Origin: a virus
Taxonomy: Duplodnaviria > Caudoviricetes
DNA: 64,000 nt
Reading direction: 5' to 3' (one strand)
Virus record (IMG/VR): IMGVR_UViG_3300021400_000138
Location: 1 to 64,000 of that record
Part shown: positions 15,902 through 64,000 of the stretch, in pieces
Numbering within the stretch: position 1 is the first letter of the stretch
Layout of the letters: every line of letters begins with the position of its first letter
Program-made: the position numbers and the translations under genes
Notes under the pieces: generated by a model
What the model was told of the DNA's origin: nothing
Database searches by the model: none
What the model saw: the letters and a program-made list of their open reading frames with translations, nothing else

Positions 15902-16720
15902 TTTCTGGATTTTGTAACTATCTATGCAGAGGACTACCCCGAATAGGGGTAGTAATGCGCTAACCGGATCACCTCCGGTTACTGGTTCCAAGTCCAGAGC
16001 ATTTGTGGAGAGAGTGCCCTAGCCACATTAAATCCAGGAAGAGCGGCTTTGCCAGTACTACGAAAATAACTGGCGGAAATCTAGGTTGTGCTATGGACGC
16101 GTGTAAATAATCCTAGTTGAGGTACATCTACCAGTGGATGTTGCCAAGATATGACCCATTGGGGTACACTGGCAAAATAATCTAAAAGGAGGAACTAATC
16201 CTAGAACCATTGGGCTAGTAATTCGTCGGATGCGGACGTTAAAGAGCCAAGAATCCCGCACCGGTAAGGTTTTGCGACACTCCAAAACCATGTGCGGTTA
16301 AATAGGCAATCTCTGGTAAAAAGGGGTTGCCCGAGTGAGGTTGGTTTCCGGATAATCCAGCTATACCACAATAGCAAAAACCGAATAATCAGAAAGGGGG
16401 TATCCTATGGGTACTGGCTCCCGATAGCTGACCACTCGCGGGGTTAGCTATCTAATCAAACCGCGAGATAGTGCGCCCGGATGTACCGCACGATAAAGAT
16501 AGCTCCGGTGATGTTACCAACCGCATTAGGCAGTGCGTGCTAAAGTACAAAAGTCTGCTATCTCCGGGAACATTATAGGTGAAGGTTGTACCGAGGTGAC
16601 ACGGTCAATAACACGATCCAGAGTCCGCTAAACTCTGGTGATGAAATGCCCGAGTGAGGGTAGCGCCTCACAATAAACCGTGACCACATGACGCCTGGCT
16701 GCAGACGGGTTAATCAACGT
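15902..16720 (+). ncRNA. candidate large structured ncRNA tract
   Basis: About 820 nt, GC-elevated, no credible CDS; many stems, H-type pseudoknot 16423-16467, duplicated TGCCCGAGTGAGG. Confidence 0.55.
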
Positions 16721-21800: not shown

Positions 21801-22909
21801 TCTTATGACAAAAGCGAAAGCAGTTGAAGAATTCAAACAGCTGTACAAAAACTTATTCCTGGAACAAGTTGATTACTGGACGGCACAGTTCGCCTGGGCA
21901 TGTTATACGGATGCACTGTGCAAGATGGGCCGCATAACACAAAATCAGCATAATAACTGGTCTACTCCGTTTAAATACGGAAAGCACCTCAGCAAAAGGG
22001 CGGTGAGGATGACATGATCTATCCGAACCGTTACGAAAACGAACCCTCAAAGAGAAAAGCATATCAGGATGCCTATGATTGCATCGTGATATACGGAATT
22101 CCGCGTAGAAATTGGAATTACAAAAAATTCGGTCTCGACAGGATCGAGATGAAAGAGGTCTGGGCAACTGCTGAGAAGGATGCCCAAGGGAAATCAATGT
22201 TATGTTGTGTTTACTAAAGAAAGGAAACAAAAATGAAAGGCTTCACATTCCCACTCGGTAGAAAAGACGTATTCATAGAAACCGAGTATAAAAACAAAAC
22301 AGAAAATCTTGCAAGCAAAATCTTGCGCAAGCTTCAGCTTCCTGATAATCCAAATACACGTAAAGAGGTTCTGCATTATCTCCAGAAAGCTGAATGTGAG
22401 ATAAAGGGGACCACACGTAGGTACTATGAAATTCACGGCGAAAACTTCGGCGGCAAGGGAAGTTTCGTCGATGATGGTAACACAATAATTATTAAACTTT
22501 AAGAAAGGAGCGAAAAATGGATACCTGGCAGGAACGTGCAAGAAAGATGCTTGTTAGTGATTTCAAGTTTAACAGAAAGAAGGTAAACGCAATTATTAAA
22601 GGAGTGACAAAACGTCATCCTGATGCAACTGATGATTATCTTTATAACGTAACTATAAAAACAGCTTACGACAGATTATTCTAAGAAAGGAAACGTGATA
22701 TATGTTTAAACTTTGTCACTGCAACGAAATCAATCCTTGCTTCGCAAAAACACAGAAAGGTAAATGTGAAATACTTACCAGCACATACAAAAAACCTGGA
22801 CAGTGTCCGTTTAGAAAAGCAGGAATTGCCGACATAGCAAAGCGAAAGTAATTCATTACCAGATAAAGCACATAACTTACGGGTTGTGTGCTTCAATGTG
22901 GCAATGAGT
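18896..22909 (+). repeat. four copies of a covarying intergenic RNA hairpin (18896-18954, 20077-20140, 21728-21782, 22851-22909)
   Basis: Lower stem TTCAT...A/TG..ATGAA with an A-C mismatch, GA/(A/T)TG internal loop, variable upper stem; each lies just upstream of an RBS. Confidence 0.75.
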
Positions 22910-40874: not shown

Positions 40875-41261
40875 TCATAACATCTCTTTTTCTAACGCTT
40901 TTCTAAGGGAATCCATAAATACCTGGCGGTAAGATTCCAGAAATATTTCTATTGTATTCTCTTCTATTGAGGTACCAGCCATGAGGGCAGGAGTTTTTTC
41001 TTTAACAAACTTTCGCAACTCTCTTTGATATGATTCCTCGTAGAAATCATCTCCTGGATCTGACACAGAATCATCGAAAAGAAATTCTTCAGTAACACAA
41101 AGTGCTTTGGCAAGTTTACGGATATTCTTCTTATGCGGTATTGCACCGAGTTTTTCATAAGAATGTATTGTTCTTTGGGATACGCCGATTTCTTCTGCCA
41201 GATCTGTTTGAAGTAATCCAAGGGAATTGCGGCAGAATTTAATCTTTTCTCCAAATGTCAT
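40875..41261 (-). CDS. XRE-family HTH repressor (ImmR-like)
   Basis: FGEKIKFCRNSLGLLQTDLAEEIGVSQRTIHSYE. Confidence 0.9.
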   Translation of the reverse strand: MTFGEKIKFCRNSLGLLQTDLAEEIGVSQRTIHSYEKLGAIPHKKNIRKLAKALCVTEEFLFDDSVSDPGDDFYEESYQRELRKFVKEKTPALMAGTSIEENTIEIFLESYRQVFMDSLRKALEKEML

Positions 41262-41291
41262 AGCTGTTCCTCCTGTTTAGCAAAATATGTA

Positions 41292-41352
41292 ACTACATAT
41301 TTTGGATTATAATATATGAAGTTTTTGGTAGCAATAAGAAATATGAAGTTTT
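41292..41352. promoter_or_regulatory. operator repeats upstream of the XRE repressor
   Basis: ACTACATAT-N13-ATATGAAGT (41292-41322) plus half-site ATATGAAGT at 41341. Confidence 0.6.
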
Positions 41353-41394
41353 GAAAAATTTGTGAACAGAAAAATATAAATATTAAAAAAGATG

Positions 41395-41423
41395 TTGACA
41401 AGATAATTTATAGGTGGTATCAT
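41395..41423 (+). promoter_or_regulatory. sigmaA promoter divergent from the repressor
   Basis: TTGACA-17-TATCAT with TG. Confidence 0.75.
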
Positions 41424-42027
41424 ACACGATGTAAAGAAGTTCAGATGATTGTATATGTGAATAATAAAAAAGGAAACAACATATGTGGATTATAAATTCA
41501 TCAAGAAACGTAGCTCTTAACGCAGCGGAGATTAAATCTTTACAAGTAAATCCATTAGATGAATCTGGATCATGTTTTATGGTGGAACCGGATGAAGTAG
41601 TAGCTTATGGAGTGTTTTCTGGCATCAATCTCATTGCTGGTCCATATAAGTCACAAGAAAAGGCAAACGGAGTTATGATAGATATTGTTTGCAGTGTTTA
41701 TAGAGAGGATCCGTTTTATTGTCCTGAAGCGGATTATAAGGTAAAGGAATATGCATAAGATATTTCAGGTATTCAAAAATATAAGGGAACTGTTTTGTAA
41801 GCATCAGTTTGAAAGATTATATATGGACGAAGACCCGAAGGCATTGGTTTATAAGTGTAAAAAATGTGGCCAGGTTGTTCGGGCGGAGATTTTTGGAAGA
41901 GAAAATATTAACTTCCGTGGATGATATTTATTAGATAAAGAGATGGGTCGCACCCATCGGAGTCAAGGGAGCGAAGTTCGCAGATTGGTTAACTTGATAA
42001 GGTGGTAAGTGGGTAAGCCGCCATTAA

Positions 42028-42167
42028 TGGGCGTTCGCCAAGAGGTAAGGCACAGCGCTTGGCAAAATAGTATAAGGTAAATACGCCGTATTAACGGAGA
42101 TATTTGTGCAAGGCAGATTTTTGCTAATGACCGCTGCATTTCATTGGTTCGAATCCAATACGCTCAG
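42028..42167 (+). tRNA. tRNA-Gln(UUG) interrupted by a 67-nt tRNA-like insert (42061-42127)
   Basis: Acceptor TGGGCGT/ACGCTCA with G73; D arm GCC-AAGAGGTAA-GGC; anticodon stem CAGCG/CGCTG; T arm ATTGG-TTCGAAT-CCAAT; removing the insert gives loop CT-TTG-AC. Confidence 0.8.
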
Positions 42168-42342
42168 ATCTATAACTCATTTTTGTACCTCCAAATGACC
42201 AGTTTGGCGGATCTGGACAAAACCGCCATTTATAAAGAGGAAGCGAAATTAAAAAATATATGGTTTATTCTTTAGTAATCGAAGAATATGTGAATTGTTA
42301 ATAGGCAAAAAATGCCTGTGAATAATCTAATATGAAAAGAAA

Positions 42343-42900
42343 GTGATTAATTTGGAAGATAGAAATTTTGATGGGTTCGCTATTACAGATAAAGAGACAG
42401 GTGAAATAATCGCCGAAACAGATCCTGGTGATAAAATTAAAATTATCACATCAAAGCAATTGGATTATTTAACCGATCCAGGAAGAGATTTTAATAAAGG
42501 AAAAACATTTGTGAAATTATATGATGAAGTTATCCCGGATTTAGTAGAGCATCTTAGTGGCACAGAATTGAAATATGTTATATCTATGGCACAACATGTT
42601 TCATATAAAGATTGTGTACTTAGAAAGACAAATAATAATTTAAGCGAACCTATTAGTGCAAGTGAATTTTGTAAAATTCATAATTATAATTATGAAACTG
42701 GAAGAAAGATTTTTAACTCTTTAAAGAAAAAAGGAGTAATAGCATATGTAGAAGTTGGTACTGTATTTCCTGATTATATCGGAAGAGTTAATAAAATGTT
42801 TTTAGTTAATCCTTATATCTATTTCAGAGGATCAGATATAAATGATACAGTAAAAACTATTTTTGATGAATCTGGATGGAAAGAAAAACTAAAAAAATAA
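42343..42900 (+). CDS. RepL-like winged-helix protein
   Basis: TDKETGEI, FVKLY, SLKKKGVI, FLVNPYIYFRG. Confidence 0.6.
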   Translation: MINLEDRNFDGFAITDKETGEIIAETDPGDKIKIITSKQLDYLTDPGRDFNKGKTFVKLYDEVIPDLVEHLSGTELKYVISMAQHVSYKDCVLRKTNNNLSEPISASEFCKIHNYNYETGRKIFNSLKKKGVIAYVEVGTVFPDYIGRVNKMFLVNPYIYFRGSDINDTVKTIFDESGWKEKLKK

Positions 42901-43067
42901 TAAGATAGATATAAGAGAGTACGAATTACATTTTCCTCATTACTACGAGATTTTTAATCAATTAAGGTGGTCAAAAATTTCCCATATAGAGGGGTATAAA
43001 TTTTCCCATTTGGTAAATACACGCACATAAAAGGAAAATAATTCCGTGTTATTTAATTGAGGTAAAT

Positions 43068-43865
43068 ATGAGTAAGAGAGTAATAAGAAGAAATATATTC
43101 GAGTCTAACAGCTCGTCGCAGCATTCAATCTGTGTTACCAAACGAGATGTCCACGTTGATCCAGAGGAATTTGATTATCACAGCGAAAAGTATCCGCACC
43201 CTGATGAATATCTTTATCTCTGGAATGGAAAGTTAGAAGTAAGAGACGTTGATGATGGATATGGTCGTTGGCCTTTTCAGATGTTAACGACATTCAAGGA
43301 TAAACTTCAATACGCTATCTGCGAGTTTCTTGGATACAAGTACTGTGACGATGATGACTATGATGATATCTTAGAAGAATTCAATGATATCTGCCGAGAA
43401 GTTGTTCCTGGATTCGAGAGTCTAAAATTTCATACCCACGATGTAGATATTTATCTCGATGAAAATGGAGATCCTATCCCTAGAAGAGAATTAGAATATG
43501 AAGGATGGGATGAGGAAAATCATAGAGATATTTATTCTTATCTGGACGAAGACGGAAATAAAAAATCGGCGATATTTGACGAGAAGAATTACTACGAAGT
43601 TCCCGCAATCGGAACGATTGATCATCAGAGTGCTGGGTTGCTTACGAATTTCTTGAAGGATAAGGGAATTTCGCTTAAGGAATTTTTGACGAACAAGAAA
43701 TACGTGGTTATTATTTCTGGTGATGAAGAACAAAAATGGGAAGAGTATAAGAGATCGGGTATGATCGATCTTGATTTTATTGTTGAAGAATATGACAGAT
43801 CAGGCGAAGATGTTGAATGGGAACAGTGGAAGGAGGAACACAGAGATGAAGAGAGTGATACGTAA
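43068..43865 (+). CDS. E(S/T)NSS-motif protein 1
   Basis: VIRRNIFESNSSSQHS; DKLQY; IDHQS. Confidence 0.8.
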   Translation: MSKRVIRRNIFESNSSSQHSICVTKRDVHVDPEEFDYHSEKYPHPDEYLYLWNGKLEVRDVDDGYGRWPFQMLTTFKDKLQYAICEFLGYKYCDDDDYDDILEEFNDICREVVPGFESLKFHTHDVDIYLDENGDPIPRRELEYEGWDEENHRDIYSYLDEDGNKKSAIFDEKNYYEVPAIGTIDHQSAGLLTNFLKDKGISLKEFLTNKKYVVIISGDEEQKWEEYKRSGMIDLDFIVEEYDRSGEDVEWEQWKEEHRDEESDT

Positions 43866-46059: not shown

Positions 46060-46094
46060 ATAAACGTTTGGCGGAGTTCGTAAACCGCCAACTT

Positions 46095-46176
46095 GCGGAT
46101 ATGATGGAATAGGAAGACATCGGGAACTTAAAATTCTCGGGCAAAAGCCGTGAGAGTTCGATCCTCTCTATCCGCA
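46095..46176 (+). tRNA. tRNA-Leu(UAA)
   Basis: GCGGATA/TATCCGC acceptor; GGGAA-CTTAAAA-TTCTC anticodon arm; long variable arm; GAGAG-TTCGATC-CTCTC T arm; no encoded CCA. Confidence 0.9.
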
Positions 46177-46501
46177 TTTGTACAGTTGACAAAGTAGAAT
46201 GCTGAAGGCCAAGGTGTTTGAAATGTTATATGTACAAAGGAAACGCGAGTGTACATAGCGATTCCAAAATCTCTGGAAAGATGCTTTAGAAAGAGATTCT
46301 TTTGTTCAACAAATTTTACAACTGAATATTGAATTTATGTTGGATCAGATGCAAAAGAAACTATAAACAGCTGAGAAATATTTGTTACTATGAAACTATG
46401 TATATATTACACACAGAATTGAAAAGACCTATTAACCACCCCGAGTGATTACGTCTTATTGTAGATTCTTTTGACTTCAAATTTGTATCTGATGCCAATA
46501 T

Positions 46502-46576
46502 CCGCCATTAGCATAGTTGGTATTATGCAGTCGCCTTATAAGCGAAAGATGCCCTGTTCGATCCAGGGATGGCGGA
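46502..46576 (+). tRNA. tRNA with UAU anticodon (Ile, reads AUA)
   Basis: CCGCCAT/ATGGCGG acceptor with A73; GCAT/ATGC D stem; TCGC-CTTATAA-GCGA; CCCTG-TTCGATC-CAGGG. Confidence 0.85.
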
Positions 46577-62497: not shown

Positions 62498-63655
62498 ATG
62501 AAATCTAAAATACTTGAGTTGATAAAAATAAATCCTGATTGGCAGAAGATTCTGGAAGATAAGAATATCAAAATCAAAATAGATATTGATAATCTGGCGA
62601 TTTTTAACTATGGAATTGACGTTGATCCATTCGATCCATATGTTAAAGAAGCCAGGGGAATCATTATTGATTTAGACAATCTCTCGGTTGTATGCTGGCC
62701 TTTTACTCGATTTTATAACTCGCACGAAGAGGCTGCACAGGAAGATGTGGCGAACTTTGATTGGAATCATTGTCGAGTAGAAAACAAAATTGATGGCAGT
62801 ATTTGTAAGCTCTTCTATCGACCGTATAAGGGTGCATTGGCAATTGATCTTGGAATTGATGGCTACTGGTCATGGGCAACAAATTCATGTATCAATGCTT
62901 TCGATGCACCAATCATGGGATCTAAGAAATCATTTGGCGAGGTTATTGAATCTGCTGTGAATTTCAAAGATATTCCGTTTGATGAGCTTGATAAAGATTG
63001 TACATATATTTTTGAATTGGTTAGTCCATTAACTCAGGTTGTGGTTTCATATCCTTATACAAAGCTTTATCATATAGGAACCAAAAACAATATTACGGGC
63101 GAAGAATACAAGATTAACATCGGGATTGACTGGCCCAAGGTTTATGATCTGCATAGTTTGAAAGATTGTCTGAATTTTGTAGATCATATTAACGACGGTC
63201 TTGATCATGTCGAATGGGAAGGGTTTGTTGCAGTTGATAAAGATTGGCACAGGTTGAAGATAAAAAGCCCCGCATATCTTGAAGCACATTATATATTCGG
63301 GAATGGTAATTGTTCCAAAGAACGATTGTTAAAACTCTTGGATGATTATGGTCTGACTAAGCTGACTAATCTCAATCCAAGCATGTTTGTTCAGTTGAAG
63401 TATTATGATTATCGTAGAACTGAACTGGAATATATTGTATCTCAGTATATATCTTATGTCAGAGGATTATATGAAGAATATAATCACGATAGAAAAGCCG
63501 TAGCTAATCAAATCAAAACTGATAAACTCGCTCCGTTTGGTTTCGCTGCAATTGGAAATGATAAAGCAGCAGAAAAGCTGCTGTTAGATACTCGAAGAAA
63601 AGTTATTGCAGATCTGTTGCCTAATTATGAAAGTAGAGATATGTGGAGGATGTAA
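62498..63655 (+). CDS. T4 Rnl1-type RNA ligase
   Basis: EARG, PFTRFYN, motif I KIDGS, FELVSP, EGFV, KIK. Confidence 0.9.
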   Translation: MKSKILELIKINPDWQKILEDKNIKIKIDIDNLAIFNYGIDVDPFDPYVKEARGIIIDLDNLSVVCWPFTRFYNSHEEAAQEDVANFDWNHCRVENKIDGSICKLFYRPYKGALAIDLGIDGYWSWATNSCINAFDAPIMGSKKSFGEVIESAVNFKDIPFDELDKDCTYIFELVSPLTQVVVSYPYTKLYHIGTKNNITGEEYKINIGIDWPKVYDLHSLKDCLNFVDHINDGLDHVEWEGFVAVDKDWHRLKIKSPAYLEAHYIFGNGNCSKERLLKLLDDYGLTKLTNLNPSMFVQLKYYDYRRTELEYIVSQYISYVRGLYEEYNHDRKAVANQIKTDKLAPFGFAAIGNDKAAEKLLLDTRRKVIADLLPNYESRDMWRM

Positions 63656-63656
63656 T

Positions 63657-64000
63657 ATGTTAAAAGAACCAACACTTGTGCTTTTATGCGGCCTCCCTGG
63701 TTCTGGTAAAAGCAATTATGCTAAATCAATTGCTGGTGATCATCCGGAATATGTTATTCATAGTTCTGATGCTCTGCGCAAAGAAATGTTTGGCGATGAA
63801 AATTGTCAGGATGACGGCGATAAAGTGTTCACTGAACTTCACAGAAGAATAAAAGAAGACCTCCGCAATGGCAAGAGTGTTATCTATGACGCTTGTAATG
63901 TTCATTCCAAAAGGCGCATGGCTTTTCTTCGTGAACTGAAGAACATTAATTGCAGTAAAGAATGTCATATCATTGCTACACCTTATGAGATTTGTCTCCG
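63657..64000 (+). CDS. polynucleotide kinase-like P-loop protein, partial
   Basis: GGAGG RBS; MLKEPTLVLLCGLPGSGKS...SSDALRKE...IYDACN; directly follows the RNA ligase. Confidence 0.8.
   Translation, partial: MLKEPTLVLLCGLPGSGKSNYAKSIAGDHPEYVIHSSDALRKEMFGDENCQDDGDKVFTELHRRIKEDLRNGKSVIYDACNVHSKRRMAFLRELKNINCSKECHIIATPYEICL

Follow-up and report, generated by a model that had tools for sequence, protein, structure and literature searches.

The tRNA-Gln(UUG) gene at positions 42028–42167 (plus strand) of the phage DNA analysed here is split between anticodon bases 34 and 35 by a 67-nt insert (42061–42127) that is itself shaped like a tRNA. The element lacks CCA, forms a full cloverleaf and belongs to a kind of intron that has barely been described. 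Inserts of the same design, 11 distinct ones in all, interrupt Gln, Asn, Lys(UUU), Ile(UAU), Thr(UGU) and CUA-suppressor tRNA genes on other viral or metagenome contigs, and we regard them as very probably a genuine conserved intron class, carried by uncultured phages that are large and often TAG-recoded. The initial annotation had treated the element as unique, a view that these additional members overturn. Throughout, ‘the window’ refers to the whole analysed stretch of 64,000 nt, the opening 64 kb of an IMG/VR virus record that is complete, 185,390 bp long and bounded by direct terminal repeats.

The outer gene is a bacterial-type tRNA-Gln complete in all parts, with the hallmarks U1-A72 and G73 (Table 1). 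More specifically, the 5' exon consists of the acceptor strand TGGGCGT, a D arm GCC-AAGAGGTAA-GGC with a 3-bp stem, the anticodon stem strand CAGCG and the loop bases CTT. The 3' exon continues with the loop bases TGAC, the stem strand CGCTG, a 6-nt variable region CATTTC, the T arm ATTGG-TTCGAAT-CCAAT, the acceptor strand ACGCTCA and G73. A default ARAGORN run makes no call for a tRNA gene at 42028–42167; with introns allowed, the program recovers the gene with an intron of 67 nt. The Gln-type body with 67 extra nucleotides in its anticodon loop described by the initial annotation is borne out. Precise removal of the insert restores a 7-nt anticodon loop, and deletion of 42061–42127 yields a 73-nt tRNA-Gln(UUG) with an ARAGORN score of 116.3, whose minimum free energy (MFE) fold is the cloverleaf. 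The exon junction of a spliced molecule would read CAGCGCUU/UGACCGCUG.

Table 1. Features of the interrupted tRNA-Gln gene and of the candidate end-joining genes (window positions).
Feature	Position	Strand	Evidence and remarks
5' exon of tRNA-Gln(UUG)	42028..42060	+	acceptor 5' strand, D arm, anticodon stem 5' strand, loop C32 U33 U34
tRNA-shaped intron, 67 nt, whole	42061..42127	+	Rfam tRNA 36.8 bits; own model R1 80.1 bits; covariation
Intron acceptor 5' strand GGCAAAA	42061..42067	+	Rfam tRNA, model R1, covariation
Intron D arm GTAT-AAGGTAA-ATAC	42070..42084	+	D-loop GG kept; Rfam tRNA, model R1, covariation
Intron truncated anticodon arm CCGT-ATTA-ACGG	42086..42097	+	Rfam tRNA, model R1, covariation
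Intron T arm ATTTG-TGCAAGG-CAGAT	42102..42118	+	Rfam tRNA, model R1, covariation
Intron acceptor 3' strand TTTTGCT, discriminator A42126, extra A42127	42119..42127	+	no CCA
3' exon of tRNA-Gln	42128..42167	+	U35 G36 A37 C38 to acceptor 3' strand, G73; no encoded CCA
Rnl1-type ATP-dependent RNA ligase, 385 aa, candidate sealing enzyme	62498..63655	+	PF09511 42.2 bits
Pnk-like end-healing protein, 312-aa P-loop kinase with weak HD	63606..64000, on to genome 64544	+	AAA_33, HD

The surroundings of the tRNA-Gln gene show no conspicuous promoter or terminator signal. A hairpin of the form GG(T/C)GG-N10-12-CCGCC-A is present in three plus-strand copies (42001–42023, 42206–42228 and 46070–46090), two of them ending 3–4 nt before the tRNA-Gln and tRNA-Leu genes and one lying ~40 nt after tRNA-Gln. 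Five tRNA genes were located in the window phage genome, three of which are found by ARAGORN. Among those missed by the program is a tRNA with the loop CTTATAA (UAU, Ile-type) at 46502–46576 (+; Rfam 51.6 bits), with tRNA-Leu(UAA) just upstream at 46094–46177. Elsewhere in the window, positions 15925–15997 (+) match the type-P5 twister ribozyme (40.1 bits, gathering threshold 37.6).

The initial annotation had cautioned that the gene can be read in another register, and the ambiguity is real: ARAGORN chooses the junction CTTG/GAC and calls the gene Pro(UGG). This register is ruled out by the Gln identity elements, namely U1-A72, G73 and A37 (not G37), together with homology. The spliced gene shares 82–88% identity with tRNA-Gln genes that lack an intron on other viral contigs, compared to 55% with the window phage's own tRNA-Pro. 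cagcgCTTTGACcgctg is identical in two of these intron-less genes, and the homologues carry an anticodon stem-loop identical to that of the spliced window gene, with the loop CTTTGAC. Taken together, the identity elements and the homology establish the gene as Gln(UUG). A comparison of the exon pair with and without the insert, suggested by the initial annotation, could be made in part: other phages provide intron-less tRNA-Gln genes with the same stem-loop, and no allele pair was found for the window gene itself.

We then consider the shape of the insert. Positions 42061–42126 match the Rfam tRNA family (RF00005) end to end at 36.8 bits (gathering threshold 29; E-value 2.7e-6 locally and 4.3e-4 window-wide), and the match contains the same cloverleaf helices that had been proposed from the sequence alone. 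Its anticodon arm has a 4-bp stem and a 4-nt loop, ATTA, where a decoding tRNA has a 7-nt loop with U33; such an arm cannot decode. Folding energy does not single out the cloverleaf, at −9.9 kcal/mol against an MFE of −12.9 kcal/mol for the insert (z-score −1.2) and, for the nested double cloverleaf, −30.8 against −36.2 kcal/mol (folding z-scores −0.9 and −1.2). What supports the shape is the covariance-model match together with the covarying helices of homologues, not thermodynamic folding. The 5' splice site lies directly before G42061 and is preceded by U, as is typical of an RNase P site.

Other kinds of intron were considered and rejected. At 67 nt, the insert is far below the ~200 nt or more of a group I P3–P8 core, and Rfam gives no group I match; it therefore cannot self-splice by group I chemistry. 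Covariance models of the small self-cleaving ribozymes (hammerhead, twister, pistol, hatchet and HDV-like) have no match in the insert. A bulge-helix-bulge (BHB) intron is defined by two 3-nt bulges separated by a 4-bp helix, with an EndA-family nuclease available; here, the junctions flank a 3-nt/6-nt internal loop beside a 7-bp helix, and EndA (PF01974) is absent in five phage genomes. The lack of group I and BHB signatures noted initially thus holds in both Rfam and junction geometry. More generally, an Rfam search of the insert with E-values up to 10 matched neither introns nor ribozymes; its matches are limited to tRNA, SpF41 and a plastid match attributable to chance.

Homologues of the insert preserve its helices by paired changes. 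A covariance model built from four full-cloverleaf members retrieved five more homologues, free-standing copies included, giving an alignment of nine sequences. In this alignment 94.7% of cells are paired, compared to 67% after shuffling and 32–52% with slid partners. Across the four helices, 16 of the 20 base pairs have changed on both sides, and none of 500 shuffles reached any of five covariation measures. The acceptor stems of the homologues differ wholly in sequence, with pairing always kept. Because the alignment was fitted to the model and comprises few sequences, we take these figures as supportive and not as a formal test; they nevertheless answer the covariation check on the insert in favour of the cloverleaf.

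The other members of the class (Table 2) come from a pattern scan of IMG/VR (a Gln-type D arm with a T loop 75–105 nt later), a second scan with the D-arm motif of the intron, a scan of metagenomes, and ARAGORN applied to the whole genomes of five phages of related kind. Some inserts form a full cloverleaf and others only the acceptor/T-arm minihelix, the part of a tRNA recognised by RNase P, RNase Z and the CCA-adding enzyme. The insertion point varies within the anticodon loop, from 32/33 to 36/37, and in every insert the 5' junction is the first nucleotide of an acceptor stem of 7 bp, which stacks on a T stem of 5 bp. Removal gives a canonical tRNA with a sensible anticodon and an ARAGORN score of 116–123 in all ten inserts tested. 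One intron family, with a common TAGTATAAG..AATACGC core, is found in Gln (window), Asn and Thr tRNAs.

Table 2. Inserts of the same design in phage tRNA genes (labels beginning with L or G are our own).
Insert	tRNA	5' loop	Insert ends	3' loop
Window	Gln	CUU	GGCAAAA...UUUUGCU-AA	UGAC
L019	Gln	CUU	GGGAAUG...CAUUCUC-UC	UGAC
L032	Gln	CUU	GGGAAUG...CAUUCUC-UA	UGAC
L022	Gln	CUUU	CGUGAAA...UUUCACG-ACCA	GAC
L055	Gln	CUUU	CGAUGAU...AUCAUCG-UCCA	GAA
L012	Ile(UAU)	CUUAU	CCAAGAU...AUUUUGG-GCCA	AA
L013/L044/L057	Lys(UUU)	CUUU	GGUUGAA...UUCAACC-ACCA	UAA
L030/L035/L050	CUA suppressor	C	GUAGAGU...UCUCUAC-ACCA	UCUAAA
L342	Thr(UGU)	UUUG	GGGCGUA...UAUGCCC-ACCA	UAA
L032, L072/L074, G001 (two variants)	Asn(GUU)	CUGU	GCGGAAG...CUUC(U/C)GA-U	UAA

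In further searches, GenBank phages gave no blastn match to window positions 41000–43500 or to the tRNA gene, nor any match to the nested tRNA of L013; no relative was found in IMG/VR with a neighbouring 185-aa protein as query, and the exact 3'-exon pattern had no match in metagenomes. In bacterial genomes, the D-arm/T-loop pattern gave at least 120 matches, and those listed are all tandem tRNA pairs, none of them an interrupted gene.

Several related elements were observed alongside the class. Mini-tRNA homologues stand free, outside tRNA genes, at L069 8887–8956 (−), L076 3337–3406 (−), L082 4808–4877 (+) and L348 1081–1144 (+), and share the TAGTATAAG..AATACGC D arm and the 4-nt ‘anticodon’ loop. 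A second class of inserts in the anticodon regions of phage tRNAs is 40–65 nt long and not tRNA-shaped, with a hairpin followed by a conserved motif resembling (A)ACAGCAA; examples are found at L009, L010/L011 (three tandem tRNAs), L126, L134, L156, L158, L173, L175, L193, L202, L204 and G001 22770–22891. Several phages with inserts of this second class encode large (~730-aa) Rnl1 fusions. Matches resembling GOLLD RNA (99–106 bits, gathering threshold 150) sit at L032 4582–5040 (−) and L072 2082–2539 (−), within the tRNA arrays of phages that carry Asn and Gln introns.

The 3' ends of the inserts follow the style of the tRNAs around them. Six inserts end exactly in N73-CCA, and the phages that carry them encode CCA in 16/17, 5/7, 6/6, 8/9, 5/5 and 2/3 of their ordinary tRNA genes, a comparison that leaves out L342, a 2-kb fragment. 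For the CCA-less inserts, the corresponding counts are 0/3 in the window phage, at most 1/3 in L019, at most 1/14 in L032 and 0/7 in L072. Since the CCA status of the insert tracks that of ordinary tRNAs, the intron 3' end looks as if it were made by the host's ordinary tRNA 3'-maturation. The exact position of the 3' cut is less uniform: it has to fall after N74 in the window, L019 and L032, and after N73 in the Asn members, and in the CCA-type members an endonuclease would have to cut directly after CCA. Bacillus-type RNase Z is blocked by CCA; cleavage directly after CCA has been reported for some RNase Z enzymes, though not for Bacillus-type ones. In the window, a cut after discriminator A42126 retains an extra A and gives an 8-nt loop, in agreement with a reservation already voiced in the initial annotation. 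The 3' exon begins with U in all four CCA-less insert types, and our guess is that this base may matter for the 3' nuclease.

Evidence that the intron is removed comes from phages that have recoded TAG. In the late regions of the window genome (G000) and of a second phage genome (G004), TAG is a sense codon: reading it as such raises long-ORF coverage from 0.57 to 0.75–0.77, with few extra ORFs. Tail genes of G004, including those for PhageMin_Tail and Sipho_tail proteins, contain 3–58 in-frame TAGs, and the sole tRNA(CUA) of this phage is an intron-bearing gene. Unless the host supplies a suppressor, the precursor must therefore be spliced for these genes to be read. On such genomic grounds, removal of the intron from the RNA appears likely.

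Additional observations concern the recoded phages. Over 100–185 kb of the window phage genome, outside the window, reading TAG as sense raises long-ORF coverage from 0.4–0.7 to 0.7–1.0. The same genome carries a 96-nt tRNA(CUA) at 159771–159866 (−; locus L220) whose acceptor stem has 8 bp and whose variable arm is long, features by which the amino acid inserted at TAG may not be Gln. Weak matches to HDV-like (theta-type) ribozymes (29.5–30.3 bits, gathering threshold 44) lie at L030 3902–3969 (+) and L055 3195–3262 (−), directly 3' of intron-bearing tRNAs, which is the arrangement already published for suppressor tRNAs in recoded gut phages. Introns are not mentioned in the theta-ribozyme paper.

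The window also encodes candidate enzymes for rejoining the exons, an Rnl1 and a Pnk-like protein, both recognised in the initial annotation and both recovered here by profile searches. ORF 62498–63655 matches the adenylyltransferase domain of PF09511 (RNA_lig_T4_1) above the cut-off of 28.3 bits over profile positions 1–227, and scores 39.3 bits against TIGR02308, below the equivalog cut-off of 242, as a divergent relative of T4 RnlA. Similarity at the equivalog level, which takes in the tRNA-specific C-terminal domain, is thus not reached. Its end overlaps the start of the Pnk-like gene (AAA_33 77.8 bits, HD 20.8 bits), and another HD protein is encoded upstream. A match to an ATP-dependent RNA ligase family is present in 10/10 intron records and in 7/14 comparable large-phage records without such introns (p ~0.01 by our own arithmetic, with 6 of the 10 matches below family cut-offs and records that are not independent). 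The ligases are of different types, Rnl1 in G000, G003 and G004, PF09414 in G001 and DRB0094-like proteins of 456–469 aa, below cut-off, in the rest. This co-occurrence lends mild support to sealing by a ligase. No EndA, RNase Z-like metallo-beta-lactamase or CCA-adding enzyme was found in five intron-bearing phage genomes searched in full, and RtcB is absent in the four checked of six intron-bearing records. With neither EndA nor an RNase Z-like enzyme found in these phages, the nucleases would be the host's.

We hypothesize that the precursor contains two nested tRNA-like domains, the inner of which would be offered to the host tRNA end-processing enzymes. Cleavage by RNase P at U42060/G42061 would give the 5' exon a 3'-OH end, and cleavage past A42127 by an RNase Z-type 3' endonuclease would give the 3' exon a 5'-phosphate end. 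The outer tRNA body would keep both exon halves together, and the phage Rnl1 ligase (62498–63655) would close the broken anticodon loop, so that the locus would be a working tRNA-Gln(UUG) gene. RNase P and RNase Z are known to leave 3'-OH and 5'-phosphate ends; Rnl1-type ligases join such ends without end-healing, and a nicked anticodon loop is their classic substrate. A splicing route of this kind had been proposed in the initial annotation, together with two putative roles for the intron, which may gate the supply of tRNA-Gln or shield the precursor from anticodon nucleases. Its core agrees with the boundaries of the 11 inserts, which fit tRNA 5' and 3' ends, and the extra A past the discriminator is a misfit: in the window, the 3' cut has to lie one nucleotide beyond the discriminator, and this counts against the route. 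We consider the chances about even that RNase P, RNase Z and the phage ligase are the enzymes involved.

This misfit invites the reading that RNase Z does cut after the discriminator and that the mature tRNA, with its 8-nt loop CUUAUGAC, decodes four bases or causes frameshifting. In its favour, the introns of the window and of L032, different in sequence, both leave A74 before UGAC, and ARAGORN still folds the 74-nt form (score 111.7). However, L019 has C at that place, the CCA-type and Asn members restore exact 7-nt loops, and intron-less homologues read CTTTGAC; such a decoder is highly improbable. A better case can be made for another nuclease, either a phage protein or a host one, that would leave cyclic-phosphate and 5'-OH ends for Pnk/HD to heal and Rnl1 to seal, as in T4 repair, with the tRNA shape serving recognition or another purpose. 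The ligase gene is indeed followed by a healing-type kinase + HD gene and preceded by another HD protein, whereas products of RNase P and RNase Z need no end-healing; moreover, the 3' cut (N73, N74 or after CCA) lies at no one fixed RNase Z distance, and Lak introns (discussed below) carry extra 5' sequence. On the other hand, neither a splicing-endonuclease homologue nor a ribozyme match was found, large phages often carry heal-and-seal cassettes for unrelated reasons, and the boundaries track tRNA ends, including the CCA correlation, for which end-processing enzymes are the simpler reading. We thus judge a nuclease of this kind unlikely.

Two further readings dispense with splicing altogether. 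The cassette may yield a free mini-tRNA (a decoy, a primer or some other non-decoding RNA of tRNA-like shape) together with two tRNA halves, or the nicked tRNA may work as it is. Free-standing homologues with a 4-nt loop (L069, L076, L082 and L348) and the similarly shaped Streptococcus sRNA SpF41, a weak match at 30.2 bits (gathering threshold 52), speak for this, yet every member retains flawless tRNA halves that spell a plausible anticodon, the single suppressor tRNA for amber codons in TAG-recoded G004 is interrupted in this way, and we expect an anticodon nick to be incompatible with decoding. An outcome without ligation is therefore, in our estimation, quite unlikely. Alternatively, the insert could be selfish tRNA-shaped DNA and tRNA-Gln a pseudogene. 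The presence of one intron family in Gln, Asn and Thr tRNAs implies mobility, and no relative of the window phage with or without the insert was found. Against decay, the exons are intact, with a spliced score of 116 and 82–88% identity to intact genes; compensatory changes keep the intron helices, the design recurs in several separate phage groups, and one interrupted suppressor tRNA is the only one its phage has. We regard a pseudogene as very unlikely. The reading that we prefer remains excision by the host tRNA end-processing enzymes followed by ligation.

Established ways of tRNA intron removal are self-splicing ribozymes in bacteria and organelles and, in archaea and eukaryotes, a BHB endonuclease with a ligase. 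Group I tRNA introns also interrupt the anticodon loop of bacterial-type tRNAs and need no protein splicing endonuclease. BHB introns, processed by EndA/Sen together with RtcB or Trl1, likewise depend on proteins for excision from the anticodon loop and ligation of the halves, but follow a 37/38 rule, whereas the loop position of the phage inserts is variable and set by the intron. T4 Pnkp/Rnl1 repair also pairs an Rnl1-family ligase with a neighbouring kinase/phosphoesterase gene and acts on a tRNA nicked in the anticodon loop; there, however, the break is made by the host defence nuclease PrrC and has cyclic-phosphate/5'-OH ends, while in the present case each molecule would undergo two programmed breaks and lose its intron. 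tRNA-like RNAs are released by RNase P and RNase Z in mascRNA (MALAT1) and in mitochondrial tRNA punctuation. By analogy, these embedded tRNA mimics with a stunted anticodon arm would share the working principle proposed here, although the systems are eukaryotic and their flanks are not rejoined, unlike the window flanks, which are tRNA halves needing ligation. The window insert has no match to the Rfam mascRNA model. SpF41 (RF02435), its second-best Rfam match, has a consensus of tRNA-like shape with a 5-bp/4-nt ‘anticodon’ hairpin, and the two have the UAGUAUA D-arm motif in common; at the score given above the insert is not a member of that family, and SpF41 is free-standing with a terminator, outside any tRNA.

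The closest precedent is a report of ‘enigmatic’ introns in the tRNAs of Lak megaphages (Devoto 2019, Nat Microbiol, PMC6784885, Fig. [quoted passage not shown] Our literature search on tRNA-like, nested or tRNA-shaped introns found nothing beyond this report. As in the window, a phage tRNA is interrupted in the anticodon loop, and the Tyr/Phe introns have an acceptor/T-arm minihelix near their 3' end. Those introns are ~80–95 nt long with ~26 nt before the tRNA-like part, whereas the window intron is tRNA-shaped from its first base, and the window phage has a 185-kb genome unrelated to Lak megaphages. Given the ~26 nt, RNase P alone cannot set the 5' splice site in the Lak Tyr/Phe introns. 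We also observe that the ‘tRNA-Tyr(GTA)’ of Lak phage A1 (Table S6, PMC6784885), with its short variable loop and G73, fits Asn better than bacterial Tyr. If its intron ends two bases past the minihelix, the loop becomes CUGUUAA (GUU, Asn), with the junction as in the Asn introns described here.

The mechanism of this kind of intron would be new, if confirmed. We tentatively put forward, as a possibility that we hold with some reserve, a third way of splicing phage tRNAs, which would borrow the cell's own enzymes for trimming tRNA ends: RNase P together with a 3' tRNase would free a tRNA-shaped intron, and a phage ligase would then seal the exons. The class itself may go back to an event in which the ligase inserted a free mini-tRNA at a broken anticodon loop. 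Because standard tRNA finders miss interrupted genes, phage tRNA sets, and the code predictions derived from them, are undercounted. If true, an intron disguised as a tRNA and excised by the universal tRNA-trimming enzymes represents a further splicing principle, and phage RNA ligases acquire a routine job beyond the repair of damage inflicted by host defence. With a phage enzyme required for the final step, the maturation of interrupted tRNAs would depend on the expression of phage genes. Such gating would take in the amber suppressor needed by the late genes of TAG-recoded phages, and would thus link the introns to the control of suppressor tRNAs in these phages.
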